DNA from: Escherichia phage vB_EcoP_F
Strand: one strand, 5' to 3'
Sequence record: NC_047808.1
Length of the DNA: 39,300 nt
Part shown: positions 3,601 to 8,067 of the stretch, piece after piece
How positions within the stretch are numbered: position 1 is the stretch's first letter
How the letters are laid out: every line of letters starts with the position of its first letter
The notes under the pieces: generated by a model
Databases searched by the model: none
What the model was told of the DNA's origin: nothing
What the model saw: only the letters and a program-made list of their open reading frames with translations
Translations under genes and position numbers: made by a program

Positions 3601-3840
3601 TATGACAAGTATCAACGGATGACCGATACGGTATTTTCGCACAATGAAATCGTTGAACACACTGACGAGGAGGGTAATGTCACTACTACGGAAGAACCTG
3701 TATACACCGAGGTGGTTATTCACGAAGAGGGTGAGGAGTGGGGTGTTCGGCCTGACGGAATTTTCTTTGCTGAAGCCGCTTATCAGAGAAGAAAACTGGA
3801 AAGAATCGAAGCCAGACTTTCTGCTCTTGAACAGAAGTAA
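646..3840 (+). CDS. tailspike protein gp17 with endosialidase (endo-N-acetylneuraminidase) domain and C-terminal intramolecular chaperone domain
   Basis: 1064 aa; N-terminus like T7 gp17 adaptor (FDYLARTFVVVTL..); Asp-boxes SGDDGQTW (1729..1752) and SRDIGQTW (2473..2496); C-terminus GVIAQQIRD..RRKLERIEARLSALEQK typical of self-cleaving chaperone domain; AGGAGG RBS. Confidence 0.85.
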   Translation: MSTITQFPSGNTQYRIEFDYLARTFVVVTLVNSSNPTLNRVLEVGRDYRFLNPTMIEMLVDQSGFDIVRIHRQTGTDLVVDFRNGSVLTASDLTNSELQAIHIAEEGRDQTVDLAKEYADAAGSSAGNAKDSEDEARRIAASIRAAGLIGYITRRSFEKGYNVTTWSEVLLWEEDGDYYRWDGTLPKNVPAGSTPETSGGIGLGAWVSVGDAALRSQISNPEGAILYPELHRARWLDEKDVRGWGAKGDGVTDDTAALTSALNDTPVGQKINGNGKTYKVTSLPDISRFINTRFVYERIPGQPLYYASEEFVQGELFKITDTPYYNAWPQDKAFVYENVIYAPYMGSDRHGVSRLHVSWVKSGDDGQTWSTPEWLTDLHPDYPTVNYHCMSMGVCRNRLFAMIETRTLAKNALTNCALWDRPMSRSLHLTGGITKAANQRYATIHVPDHGLFVGDFVNFSNSAVTGVSGDMTVATVIDKDNFTVLTPNQQTSDLNNAGTNWHMGTSFHKSPWRKTDLGLIPSVTEVHSFATIDNNGFVMGYHQGDVAPREVGLFYFPDAFNSPSNYVRRRIPSEYEPDAAEPCIKYYDGVLYLITRGTRGDRLGSSLHRSRDIGQTWESLRFPHNVHHTTLPFAKVGDDLIMFGSERAENEWEAGAPDDRYKASYPRTFYARLNVNNWNADDIEWVNITDQIYQGGIVNSGVGVGSVVVKDNYIYYMFGGEDHFNPWTYGDNSAKDPFKADGHPSDLYCYKMKIGPSNHVSRDFRYGAVPNRAVPVFFDTNGIRTVPAPMEFTGDLGLGHVTIRASTSSNIRSEVLMEGEYGFIGKSIPTDNPAGQRIIFCGGEGTSSTTGAQITLYGANNTDSRRIVYNGAEHLFQTADVKPYNDNVTALGGPSNRFTTAYLGSNPIVTSNGEKKTEPVVFDDAFLDAWGDVRYIMYQWLDAVQLKGNDARIHFGVIAQQIRDVFIAHGLMDENSTNCRYAVLCYDKYQRMTDTVFSHNEIVEHTDEEGNVTTTEEPVYTEVVIHEEGEEWGVRPDGIFFAEAAYQRRKLERIEARLSALEQK

Positions 3841-3973
3841 TAAACAAAACCCTTTTGCCATTAAGTTGGTGGGGTAGATGTTAGAAGGTTGTGGAGGTAG
3901 AGGCTAACTACACGCTAACCAACGTAGGTAACAACTTTGGGTCACGGACGACCCGCTTTAAACTGGAGGTTTT

Positions 3974-4168
3974 ATGATTGAGTTAGACTTCAAGAATGAG
4001 GTCCTTAAAGCCTCTCCTATCGTCGGGACCGCTGCGGCTGATGGTGCCAGTCGGTTCTTCTTCGGACTTACACTGAACGAATGGTTCTACGTTGCAGCTA
4101 TCGCGTACACCGTTGTCCAGATTGGTGTGCTAGTCTACAAAACGATTAAAGGAGGTGGTAAAACATGA
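3974..4168 (+). CDS. class II holin gp17.5
   Basis: 64 aa; FFFGLTLNEWFYVAAIAYTVVQIG matches recalled T7 gp17.5; GGAGG RBS; position after tailspike. Confidence 0.8.
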   Translation: MIELDFKNEVLKASPIVGTAAADGASRFFFGLTLNEWFYVAAIAYTVVQIGVLVYKTIKGGGKT

Positions 4169-4428
4169 CGCAGATGGACTTAGAGAAGTTCCTCTTGATG
4201 CTTGATACTGAGCGTGCTCGACTTATGCTTCAAGACTTGCGGGATGACACTAAGCGTTCACCTCAGCTCTACAACGCCATTGAGAAGCTGCTTGCTCGTC
4301 ACAACTTTGTGTTAAGTAAGGTGTCTGTGGACGAGAAGACGCTGGCTGATATGGAGGCCCTGAACGCAGAGTATGATAAGGTGCTTTCAGCGACTGAGGA
4401 TAATGACACAGGGTATGGTGTTCAATAA
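4165..4428 (+). CDS. terminase small subunit gp18
   Basis: 87 aa, size and position as T7 gp18; ATGA overlap with holin stop. Confidence 0.75.
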   Translation: MTQMDLEKFLLMLDTERARLMLQDLRDDTKRSPQLYNAIEKLLARHNFVLSKVSVDEKTLADMEALNAEYDKVLSATEDNDTGYGVQ

Positions 4429-4480
4429 GTGTTAGACTCAAGGTCATTACTATATGTAGTGGCCTTTATGGTTAACACTA
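4429..4480 (+). promoter_or_regulatory. candidate RNase III processing hairpin (R18.5 position) containing motif TAGACTCAAGGTCAT
   Basis: Imperfect inverted repeat GTGTTA..TAACAC enclosing the recurrent motif; intergenic, same relative position as T7 R18.5. Confidence 0.3.
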
Positions 4481-4529
4481 ACTAGTGGAGGCGACTCTAC
4501 GTGAAATCTGATAAACCGGGAGGGCAACT

Positions 4530-4979
4530 ATGCTCGAATTTTTAAAGAGAGCGGCTCCGTGGTTACTTGCAGCAGTGATGTTTGCTGGTGGCTACCACAC
4601 CGCTAACAATAAGTGGGAGGCTAAGGTCAATGCAGAATACACCTCGAATCTTAAGGCATCGGAGGATACAAGGCTTGCTGTCCAAGCTGAAGTCAACAAA
4701 GTGTCCAAACGGTTCCAGGACGAAATGTCCTCGTTGGAAGGCAGCACTGATAGGATTATTGCTGACCTTAAGTCTGACAATAAGCGGCTGCTCATCCGAG
4801 TCAAACCTACGAGTGGAACCACGCAAAGTGACGGTCGATGCTTCATTGATGGTTACGCCGAACTTGACGAACGAGATGCTAAACGTCTTATCGCCATCGG
4901 AGTGAAAGGAGACAAGTGGATTAAGGCCCTTCAAGACACTGTGAGAGCCTTACAGCAAGAGAAGGAGGTGACGCATTGA
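4530..4979 (+). CDS. Rz-like i-spanin gp18.5
   Basis: 149 aa; N-terminal TM segment ([12 protein letters not shown]) then coiled-coil-like region; GGGAGG RBS; position before large terminase. Confidence 0.75.
4630..4905 (+). CDS. Rz1-like o-spanin lipoprotein embedded in +1 frame of Rz
   Basis: Embedded ORF with signal/lipobox LTISGC (Cys codon 4789..4791), proline-rich C-terminus; ATG 4630 preceded by GGGAGG at 4615..4620; start uncertain (track uses TTG at 4582). Confidence 0.45.
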   Translation: MQNTPRILRHRRIQGLLSKLKSTKCPNGSRTKCPRWKAALIGLLLTLSLTISGCSSESNLRVEPRKVTVDASLMVTPNLTNEMLNVLSPSE

Positions 4980-6739
4980 GTAAAGACTTAGTGGCGCGTC
5001 AGGCGCTAATGACTGCCCGTATGAAGGCAGACTTCGTGTTCTTCCTGTTCGTCCTGTGGAAAGCTCTGTCACTCCCGGTCCCGACTCGCTGTCAGATTGA
5101 CATGGCGAAGAAACTATCGGCTGGCGACAACAGGCGTTTCATCCTACAGGCGTTCCGTGGTATCGGGAAGTCCTTCATTACGTGTGCATTCGTGGTCTGG
5201 AAACTATGGAACAACCCAGACTTGAAGTTCATGATTGTGTCGGCCTCAAAGGAACGAGCCGATGCGAACTCCATCTTCATCAAGCGAATCATCGACCTCA
5301 TGCCTCAGCTTAAGGAACTCAAACCTAAGCAGGGACAGCGAGATGCGGTTATCAGCTTCGACGTTGGACCAGCCAAGCCGGACCACTCACCTTCGGTTAA
5401 GTCCGTTGGTATCACTGGTCAGTTGACTGGTAGTCGTGCTGACATCCTGATTGCCGATGACGTGGAGGTTCCGAACAACTCAGCGACTCAGGCTGCACGA
5501 GACCGTCTGTCAGAGCTTGTGAAAGAGTTCGATGCTATCCTGAAGCCCGGAGGCACAATCATCTATCTGGGTACTCCTCAGAACGAGATGACCCTGTATC
5601 GTGAGCTGGAAGGTCGTGGGTACACCACTACTATCTGGCCTGCTCGTTATCCACGCGACAGGAAGGACTGGCAGTCTTACGGCGACCGTCTGGCTCCTAT
5701 GCTTCAGGCAGAACTGGAAGAGGACCCTGAGTCCTTCTACTGGCGTCCGACCGACGAGGTACGCTTCGATGATACGGACCTGAAGGAACGTGAGTTGTCA
5801 TATGGCAAGGCTGGCTTCGCTCTACAGTTCATGCTTAACCCGAACCTGAGTGATGCTGAGAAGTACCCTCTGAAGCTCCGTGACCTTATCGTAGCTGACT
5901 TGGACCCAGCGTCTAGCCCAATGGTCTACCAATGGCTTCCTAACCCTCAGAACAAGCGTGAGGACGTTCCTAACGTTGGACTCATGGGGGACTCATACCA
6001 CACGTATCAGACTGTAGGTTCTGCCTTCAGTTCGTACACCCAGAAGATTCTAGTCATTGACCCTAGTGGTCGTGGTAAGGATGAAACTGGTTATGCGGTA
6101 CTGTACCAGCTAAACGGCTACATCTTCGCTATGGAAGTTGGCGGTATGCGGGGCGGCTATGAAGACTCTACGCTGGAAGCCCTGGCTAAGATTGGTCGTA
6201 AGTGGAAGGTCAACGAATACGTAATTGAGGGTAACTTCGGTGATGGTATGTACCTTGAGCTATTCAAGCCTGTAGCTTCCCGTATTCATCCTGCTGCTGT
6301 AACTGAAGTGAAGAGTAAGGGTCAGAAGGAACTCCGCATCTGTGACGTTCTGGAGCCTATCATGGGGTCTCACCGACTTATCATCAACGCTGCTGCTATC
6401 GTCCAAGATTACCAGTCTGCCTCTGATAAGGATGGTGTTCGTAATCCTATCTACTCTCTCTTCTACCAGATGACACGTATCTCTCGTGAACGTGGAGCAT
6501 TGGCACACGATGACCGACTTGATGCGCTGGCTATCGGTGTACAGTTCTTCGTTGAGTCTATGGCGAAGGATGCCAACAAAGGCGAACGTGAAGTCACTGA
6601 GGAGTGGCTGGAAGAACAGATGGAGAACCCACGGAAAGGCTTCGAGTCCATCCACACTGAGTTCTGGGACAATGGGGTCCGGGTAACTCACGATACGGAC
6701 GACGAGCTTGGACTAGGGTCCTACGTTACGTTCCACTAG
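4976..6739 (+). CDS. terminase large subunit gp19
   Basis: 587 aa; strong similarity to recalled T7 gp19 from the first residues ([33 protein letters not shown]); apparent TTG start 4976 overlapping Rz stop, GAAGGAGG RBS upstream. Confidence 0.9.
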
Positions 6740-6781
6740 CTGAATGAATAACTATAGGCGAAAACTGAATTAATAAGCAGT

Positions 6782-6800
6782 TAGTAACCTATGGTTACTA
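6782..6800 (+). promoter_or_regulatory. tight hairpin TAGTAACC-TAT-GGTTACTA (8-bp perfect stem, 3-nt loop)
   Basis: Perfect inverted repeat between terminase stop and phiOR-like promoter; no adjacent U-tract. Confidence 0.25.
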
Positions 6801-6833
6801 CCAGTCTAACCTACTGTTTTACAAGGAGTTTGG

Positions 6834-6856
6834 ACTTAACTATCACTATAGGGAAG
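6834..6856 (+). promoter_or_regulatory. phage RNA polymerase promoter (phiOR position), ACTTAACTATCACTATAGGGAAG
   Basis: Consensus match; located after gene 19 as T7 phiOR. Confidence 0.75.
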
Positions 6857-7035
6857 ACCCCCGGTTACTTATAGTATTACTGTAGTGAATATACATATGC
6901 AGACTTTATGCAAGACCTTAGGAGGCAGACTCCGAGTTCTTACCTAAGGCTTGCACCGATGGAAGGAGGGTGATATTAATCATAATCCCTCCAATACAGA
7001 TAGTAAAGACCATAGATACAGGAGGTATGTAGCAT

Positions 7036-7194
7036 ATGGCAAAGACCAAAGCTGTACTTAAAGCTCTGGCTACCAATCGAGCTACATACAGGTTTCTTGC
7101 TGCTGTTCTACTTGCTGCTGGCGTTACTGCTGGAAGTAAGTGGGTCGGGTGGGTCGAGACTCTCGTATGTTCTCTGGTGTCTCAGTGCAATTAA
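7036..7194 (+). CDS. gp19.5-like small membrane protein
   Basis: 52 aa (MAKTKAVLKALATNRATYRFLAAVLLAAGV..); GGAGG RBS at 7021..7025; resembles recalled T7 gp19.5 (RVTYRFL motif); last gene before genome end. Confidence 0.5.
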   Translation: MAKTKAVLKALATNRATYRFLAAVLLAAGVTAGSKWVGWVETLVCSLVSQCN

Positions 7195-7309
7195 CGCAAT
7201 CATGGTAACGATTCATGAAAGGAGGTAGGTAGGTGTGAACGAAGATGACTACGTGTCGTTCTCAGAAGAGGACTACCAGACAGAGTGGGAATACGCACAT
7301 GGGAGGAAG

Positions 7310-7356
7310 AGCTAAGGTCAGTACGTGGATAAAGACTCACTCTACTGACCTTAGCT
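7310..7356 (+). promoter_or_regulatory. perfect 14-bp stem hairpin AGCTAAGGTCAGTA ... TACTGACCTTAGCT with 19-nt loop
   Basis: Exact inverted repeat 7310..7323 / 7343..7356 in the non-coding right-end region. Confidence 0.35.
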
Positions 7357-7447
7357 ACTGTAGTCAAGGACTTTAGGTAACACCTTAATAGAAGCTCACT
7401 TAGGGTCATCCTACTTATTGGTCCATCCTAGTGTCGCCTGACCTACG

Positions 7448-7815: not shown

Positions 7816-7926
7816 TAATAGACACACAGCTATAGACTTAAGGTCAAAGACATGTTAGTCAAAGACTATATCCTCTTACACCATGAGGCCGACGATAGCT
7901 CAATCAATATTATTTCGAATTACCTA

Positions 7927-7956
7927 TTGACTATAGGTCTAGACTATGGCTTAATA
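7927..7956 (+). promoter_or_regulatory. candidate host sigma70 early promoter (A1-like): TTGACT-17 bp-CTTAAT
   Basis: -35 TTGACT at 7927..7932; spacer contains CTAGACTATGG resembling T7 A1 spacer; weak -10. Confidence 0.3.
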
Positions 7957-8067
7957 GCTTCCGTCAACACGACACGGCAACAACCGGATAGTGAAGACGC
8001 CTGGTCATCCCGGTTAAGTAGACAGCCTGATAAGTCATACGAACAACAGGCAGATGACAGAAAGTAG

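Follow-up and report, generated by a model that had tools for sequence, protein, structure and literature searches.

The large terminase gene of Escherichia phage vB_EcoP_F (sequence record NC_047808.1) can be read from either of two codons, a TTG that overlaps the stop codon of the upstream Rz gene or an internal ATG that has been preferred in some records of close relatives. We asked which of these codons starts the gene and what a non-ATG start might mean for terminase synthesis. The analysis was performed on a window of 39,300 nucleotides, by which we mean the whole stretch of DNA under study. The phage belongs to the K1F group of the genus Kayfunavirus (Autographiviridae, Studiervirinae), and the 601 bases around the start are 99.8% identical to vB_EcoP_FFK3 (ON548433.1), with identical coordinates, and 99.3% identical to phage K1F. 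The window as a whole is equal in length to ON548433.1, from which it departs by 486 substitutions without a single indel. These are unevenly spread: a 2-kb segment holds 0-1 of them across 22-28 kb and up to 59 elsewhere, and there are none between 4715 and 5606.

Public records are divided on the start. The TTG is annotated in ON548433.1 (CDS 4976..6739), in the K1F record AM084414/NC_007636 and in Peacock (MK903279), where a ribosome-binding site for the terminase is annotated as well. The K1F records nevertheless disagree with one another, as NC_007636 gives 586 aa from the TTG (YP_424964) whereas DQ111067/NC_007456 gives 575 aa from the ATG (YP_338131). The short form also appears in PR_Kaz2018 (QFP92962, 575 aa), and the terminase of SH3 (NC_031123) is annotated from the internal ATG with 577 aa. 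A TTG start for this gene is thus already known and annotated and is not new, and what the comparison of sequences below adds is a resolution of the annotation conflict in favor of TTG.

The large terminase gene and its neighbors

The genes around the terminase are arranged as in T7, with holin 17.5, small terminase 18, Rz/Rz1 and gene 19 following one another (Table 1). The terminase matches PF22530 over residues 361-468 (E=5e-38) and PF03237 over residues 61-176, both above the Pfam cut-offs, as well as phrog_38 (E=4e-131) and the structure 4bij_A (E=2e-216). It carries an N-terminal ATPase domain with Walker A and B motifs and a C-terminal RNase H-like nuclease domain; the Walker A sequence AFRGIGKS lies at residues 59-66, and ILIADD is visible in the translation. 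In HMMER, residues 1-579 pair with residues 1-579 of the T7-type large terminase 8dgc_E (E=6e-247), and therefore the similarity begins at the TTG codon itself, as a first-pass annotation made from the letters of this DNA had proposed.

Table 1. Coordinates of the features discussed in the text, numbered from the first base of the window.
Feature	Position	Strand	Basis or remark
Endosialidase tailspike	646-3840		gene-order listing
T7-type class II holin (gene 17.5 homologue)	3974..4168	+	Pfam PF10746, E=2e-22
Small terminase subunit (gene 18 homologue)	4165..4428	+	Pfam PF11123, E=3e-12
Rz-like i-spanin (gene 18.5 homologue), 149 aa	4530..4979	+	phrog_1327, E=3e-60; N-terminal hydrophobic segment
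Embedded Rz1-like o-spanin (gene 18.7 homologue)	4630..4905	+	phrog_4306, E=5e-33; +1 frame, lipobox LTISGC
In-frame TAA closing the terminase frame upstream	4922..4924	+	sequence read
Shine-Dalgarno site GAAGGAGGTGA, inside the Rz 3′ end	4961..4971	+	10-nt core AAGGAGGTGA at 4962-4971
TTG initiation codon of the large terminase (gene 19 homologue)	4976..4978	+	first start-type codon after the in-frame TAA
TGA stop of Rz (gene 18.5)	4977..4979	+	overlaps the TTG as TTGA, 4976-4979
Large terminase CDS, 587 aa	4976..6739	+	PF22530, PF03237, phrog_38, PDB 8dgc_E
Codons 2-11 of the terminase	4979..5008	+	coding signatures in relatives; untranslated if the internal ATG is the start
Internal in-frame ATG, codon 12	5009..5011	+	rival start in some records; MTARMK...

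The genes upstream form an embedded two-component spanin pair, in which an i-spanin with a membrane anchor contains, in the +1 frame, a lipoprotein with a lipobox. The Pfam Phage_lysis match of Rz falls below its cut-off, and the records of relatives annotate the gene as Rz. Rz1 carries no annotation in the FFK3 record, and its start is ambiguous, being placed at ATG 4630 in K1F and at codon 4675 in Peacock; the Peacock-type start is another TTG, 9 nt after GGAGG. Two further observations concern the annotation of the surrounding region. A 60-aa GTG open reading frame at 5601-5783 (+), in another frame inside the terminase gene, corresponds to the putative gene 19.2 annotated in K1F and T7. 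The 71-aa open reading frame at 7852-8067 is named ′alpha,alpha-trehalase′ in the FFK3 record, a name that is implausible for 71 aa in the early region of a T7-like phage and is probably an annotation artefact.

A strong Shine-Dalgarno site precedes the TTG codon

The TAA at 4922-4924 closes the terminase frame upstream, and hence the TTG at 4976 is the first start-type codon of the open reading frame. The overlap described in the first-pass annotation was confirmed, since the TTG (4976-4978) and the TGA of Rz (4977-4979) share the tetranucleotide TTGA. That annotation had also placed GAAGGAGG seven bases upstream of the TTG, and we found it at 4961-4968, followed by the spacer TGACGCA (4969-4975). 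This motif lies partly within a 10-nt sequence, AAGGAGGTGA, that is a perfect complement of the anti-Shine-Dalgarno end at the 3′ end of 16S rRNA, and the signal is stronger than had been stated. The TTG follows the GGAGG core at a distance of 7 nt and the full 10-nt sequence at 4 nt, so that the first start-type codon in the open frame stands 4-9 nt 3′ of a Shine-Dalgarno site. The window holds three copies of AAGGAGGTGA, compared with 0.12 expected by chance from shuffles, and all three lie 3-4 nt 5′ of annotated starts (4976, 14758 and 25395).

The nearest in-frame ATG was said to lie 11 codons downstream, and it does: ATG 5009-5011 is codon 12, from which the frame reads MTARMK.... If this ATG were the start, the product would be a protein of 576 aa, positions 4980-5008 would be an untranslated spacer, and the TTG would be incidental. 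Such a reading has annotation practice on its side. ATG starts 47 of the 48 genes of this genome, and the internal ATG was chosen in Scholl and Merril's K1F record, in PR_Kaz2018 and by Hamdi et al. for SH3, a close relative. Some distant relatives also have N-termini as short as that of the ATG product (e.g. MSTRINEDF), and as a result length alone does not decide against it. The sequence in front of the codon argues the other way. No Shine-Dalgarno site was found within 20 nt upstream of ATG 5009, the only site listed in the SH3 paper being TCAGGCGCT, and the perfect 10-nt AAGGAGGTGA, at a distance of 37 nt, would go unused. We consider a start at ATG 5009 highly unlikely on these grounds together with the comparisons described below.

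An in-frame GTG at 4991 (codon 6), which was absent from the first-pass annotation, was considered as a further candidate and rejected. It lies 19 nt from the Shine-Dalgarno site with no usable site ahead of it, and it is not conserved: codon 6 is Ala (GCG/GCA) in K1F-like relatives of the SQDLAARQAL type and Gln (CAG) in locus L012.

Relatives of K1F conserve the TTG and the coding character of codons 2-11

Alignment of the start regions across relatives had been proposed as a check on the TTG start, and the outcome favors it. We compared K1F-like sequences from IMG/VR and GenBank, which comprise 16 distinct junction haplotypes. TTG and an intact GGAGG core are present in 16/16 of these junctions, each with its Shine-Dalgarno site, whereas three of the four bases in between vary. 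In locus L015 (1043-1204) a different 53-aa open reading frame precedes the terminase gene; its TGA overlaps the TTG, and the Shine-Dalgarno site is retained. Loci L013 and L014 carry an ATG exactly at the TTG position, followed by Ser-Lys, which counts against initiation at codon 12. Met12 itself is not conserved, as codon 12 is GTG (Val) in L103.

The ten codons between the two candidate starts evolve as coding sequence would. Ser2 is written AGT or TCT and Arg8 is written CGT or AGA among K1F-like sequences, L013/L014 carry a 3-nt in-frame indel, and the segment can be aligned to xRNAL in the N-terminus of the T7 family. The variable sites number 6:4:6 at the three codon positions, a tally dominated by one divergent sequence, and the coding argument consequently rests on the multi-base synonymous changes and the in-frame indel. 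On that evidence codons 2-11 behave as coding sequence, and they align with the T7-type terminase N-terminus, where translation from ATG 5009 would leave them unread.

The insertions at this junction are of some interest in their own right. In L013 (762-1199), as well as L014, an HNH homing-endonuclease gene separates Rz from gene 19 and the N-terminus of the terminase has diverged, and the insert, the ATG start and the diverged N-terminus look like co-conversion of flanking sequence. An insert at the gap between Rz and gene 19 is also seen in several GenBank relatives (H29, H48, H74-H76).

We also considered whether the overlap with the Rz stop leaves the terminase no choice but TTG, and rejected the idea. 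An ATGA would retain the stop and alter only the last residue of Rz, which is not conserved: K1F-like relatives end Rz with CAT (His), CCT (Pro) or CGT (Arg). Where that codon is CCT or CGT, replacing its T by A or G would turn the TTG into ATG or GTG and leave the Rz residue unchanged, yet this is unseen, and for this reason the overlap does not explain the TTG. The invariance of this T within clades concerns a single site in close relatives, so that its statistics are weak and it amounts to no significant test of selection.

KP32-like and T7-like phages share the arrangement

The arrangement extends to a second genus. In the KP32-like Klebsiella phages (Przondovirus), AAGGAGGTGA-N3-TTGA was found in 30/30 sampled loci (L117, L122-L147, L173, L180 and L184 carry this module). 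As in the phage studied here, AAGGAGGTGA is followed after 3 nt by a TTG that overlaps the Rz TGA, and residue 2 is Ser; the difference is that these phages belong to another genus, their junction being about 72% identical at the nucleotide level. In all 30 loci the stretch from the upstream stop to the conserved DFVAF motif is free of any further ATG, GTG or TTG, and therefore the TTG is the sole route to the conserved N-terminus in KP32-like phages. They have no equivalent of the internal start at codon 12. The annotation of one of them, MH172261.1 (L117, KP32 isolate 192; 639-714), begins 26 codons into the gene, at an internal GTG, because the TTG had not been accepted as a start, and it truncates conserved sequence.

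Gene 19 of T7 and T3 is an orthologue in the same gene order (holin-18-18.5/18.7-19) and likewise has a non-ATG start 4 nt after a strong Shine-Dalgarno site. The N-terminal sequences align with that of the present terminase (VSTQSNRNALVVAQLKGDF shown). The start codon differs, being GTG behind TAAGGAGG in T7 and T3 and TTG in Kayfunavirus, and so does the spacing, as the T7 and T3 starts lie 21 nt and 9 nt, respectively, after the 18.5 stop with no overlap, unlike the TTGA found here.

A last possibility for the position of the start is that both codons are used, with UUG 4976 giving the full-length protein and AUG 5009, or AUG 5021 (Met16), giving a minor shortened isoform. Most K1F-like sequences have in-frame ATGs at codon 12 and at codon 16, and T7-like phages use internal starts elsewhere, for example in gene 4A/4B according to annotation. 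Neither ATG is preceded by a Shine-Dalgarno site, however, Met12 is not kept in L103, KP32-like and T7-like phages have Ile, Val or Leu at these positions, and nothing suggests a function for the shortened form. Two products from this gene seem to us exceedingly improbable.

Taken together, orthologues keep both the start position and the signal ahead of it, and the sequence that follows evolves as coding sequence. We conclude from these alignments that the terminase of this Kayfunavirus is very probably translated from UUG 4976, giving a protein of 587 aa that begins fMet-Ser-Lys-Asp. Literature searches, with the K1F genome paper outside their scope, returned no experimental gp19 N-terminus (Edman, proteomics or ribosome profiling) and no discussion of the terminase start codon.

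Coupling to Rz is optional at most

The junction is a stop/start overlap, TTGA at 4976-4979, that is conserved in K1F-like and KP32-like loci. It resembles other four-base overlaps (ATGA, GTGA and TTGA) in sharing bases between the two codons and in having the Shine-Dalgarno site inside the upstream CDS. The UUGA would set ribosomes terminating on Rz directly at the terminase start, and some initiation may be coupled in this way. RNA structure that could mask the start was not significant, with a minimum free energy of -33.9 kcal/mol, z=-1.52 and 14/200 shuffles folding as well. A hairpin predicted over the TTG would be disrupted by substitutions of the L011 type, as judged by pairing the bases by hand. 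A structural switch or obligatory coupling to Rz was dropped as an explanation, given the z-score of -1.5 and the hand-paired disruption of the hairpin in relatives. Coupled operon pairs differ from the present case, in which no masking structure that is significant or conserved was seen, and T7 and T3 do without an overlap. Because the structure is not significant and T7/T3 lack the overlap, coupling to Rz is optional at most. An Rfam scan of 3800-7400 at E<=1 returned nothing, and a scan of 3800-5400 for sigma-70 promoters and terminators gave hits at chance level.

Non-ATG starts are concentrated in the terminase gene

Given a TTG start, we considered how unusual it is. The terminase is the sole exception to ATG among the 48 annotated CDS of this genome, while in T7 GTG starts 6/57 CDS. 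Among 171 related loci, with starts assigned heuristically from Shine-Dalgarno strength and alignment in a sample biased toward relatives of two queries, the terminase begins with ATG in 97, TTG in 52, GTG in 17 and ATT in 4, so that 73/171 are non-ATG (TTG, GTG or ATT); the loci are phylogenetically non-independent, and these counts are not counts of independent events. The alignable starts of the neighboring holin, gp18 and Rz genes in the first 80 loci are 55 ATG and 1 GTG (n=56). Within one cluster of terminases at least 92% identical over 100 aa, there are TTG (KP32-like), GTG (T7-/T3-like) and ATG lineages. By these counts, non-ATG initiation is enriched specifically in the terminase gene, stable within lineages and switching between them.

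Still weaker codons may be in use. Loci L039 and L182 (around 1165-1185) have TAAGGAGGT-N5-ATT at the homologous start, where the sibling locus L040 has TTG. L072 and L073 (1174), which come from independent samples and do not differ in sequence, have GAGGTGA-N6-ATT, whose ATT lines up with the ATG of L190-L201. Both pairs have a good Shine-Dalgarno site in front of the ATT. No ATG, GTG or TTG alternative is available at either pair of terminase starts, and it is possible that these are rare AUU starts. In the more distant loci L065-L067 (around 1147-1200), the expected terminase ATG is out of frame by one base (gcATGcTGG), and the frame offers a single start-type codon, an upstream TTG whose Shine-Dalgarno site is weak; these loci have either a further TTG start or a frameshift.

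Expression tuning or codon drift

Because of the weakness of the codon, we considered a role for the TTG in setting the level of terminase. UUG is read by the initiator tRNA with a first-position mismatch, and IF3 discriminates against it. The maximal 10-nt Shine-Dalgarno sequence AAGGAGGUGA (4962-4971) in the last codons of Rz can place the 30S subunit, and the UUG, 4 nt after it, is the only start-type codon within reach. Initiation at UUG is expected to be less efficient than at AUG, and a very strong Shine-Dalgarno site combined with a weak codon may yield a fixed, moderate and reliable output. Terminase would be needed in catalytic rather than structural amounts, with few copies per packaging event, and on late mRNAs shared with the genes of abundant structural proteins the codon would lower the terminase share. 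A strong Shine-Dalgarno site with a non-AUG start, often with a stop/start overlap, would then be a lineage-stable module of T7-like terminase genes, with TTG as its codon in Kayfunavirus and KP32-like Przondovirus and GTG in T7/T3.

This arrangement recalls E. coli infC and pcnB, where a poor initiation codon (AUU) serves a product needed in small amounts, and the likeness extends to the two phage lineages in which ATT stands at the homologous position of the terminase gene. IF3, the product of infC, regulates its own synthesis, and the comparison is limited in that nothing here points to feedback. It is limited further by the codon, as UUG is canonical and far stronger than AUU. According to Hecht et al., infC and pcnB are the only two E. 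coli genes with confirmed AUU starts, and the three canonical start codons gave 10-100% of AUG activity in E. coli reporter assays.

The same range can be read the opposite way, with the TTG a real start that has no regulatory meaning, the codon drifting because a very strong Shine-Dalgarno site, possibly helped by coupling to Rz, buffers output against such changes. GUG and UUG fall in AUG's broad class (10-100%) according to Hecht et al., and the cluster of terminases with at least 92% identity over 100 aa includes lineages with ATG, GTG and TTG starts, all behind strong Shine-Dalgarno sites. Many terminase orthologues have an ATG with an equally strong Shine-Dalgarno site, which means that a weak start codon is not obligatory and that neutral codon drift stays a serious alternative to tuning. 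Drift should also have hit the neighbors, however, and the holin, gp18 and Rz starts stand at 55 ATG to 1 GTG. In this genome the single non-ATG start is that of the terminase, TTG is fixed within the Kayfunavirus and KP32-like clades, and two lineages apparently went on to ATT, a much weaker codon. Weighing these points, we regard drift without regulatory meaning as rather unlikely. Tuning of expression by the non-ATG terminase start is plausible from this analysis. Its broader form, in which selection across T7-like podoviruses has kept a non-AUG start downstream of a near-maximal Shine-Dalgarno site as a throttle on terminase synthesis that is stable within lineages, is put forward tentatively, as a possibility that falls short of being probable.

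Implications for T7-like phages

The choice of start matters for cloning, expressing and engineering these terminases, and phage engineering and therapy make use of both K1F- and KP32-type phages. The TTG start is an ordinary feature, common to T7-like relatives, and changes no concept. The biological addition is a modest one: weak start codons recur in the T7-like terminase gene and not in its neighbors, which is consistent with a translational setting of enzyme dosage. Should the throttle exist, lineages would have switched repeatedly among AUG, GUG and UUG, with at least two apparently using AUU, and terminase dosage relative to procapsids would be critical for fitness and set at the initiation codon.
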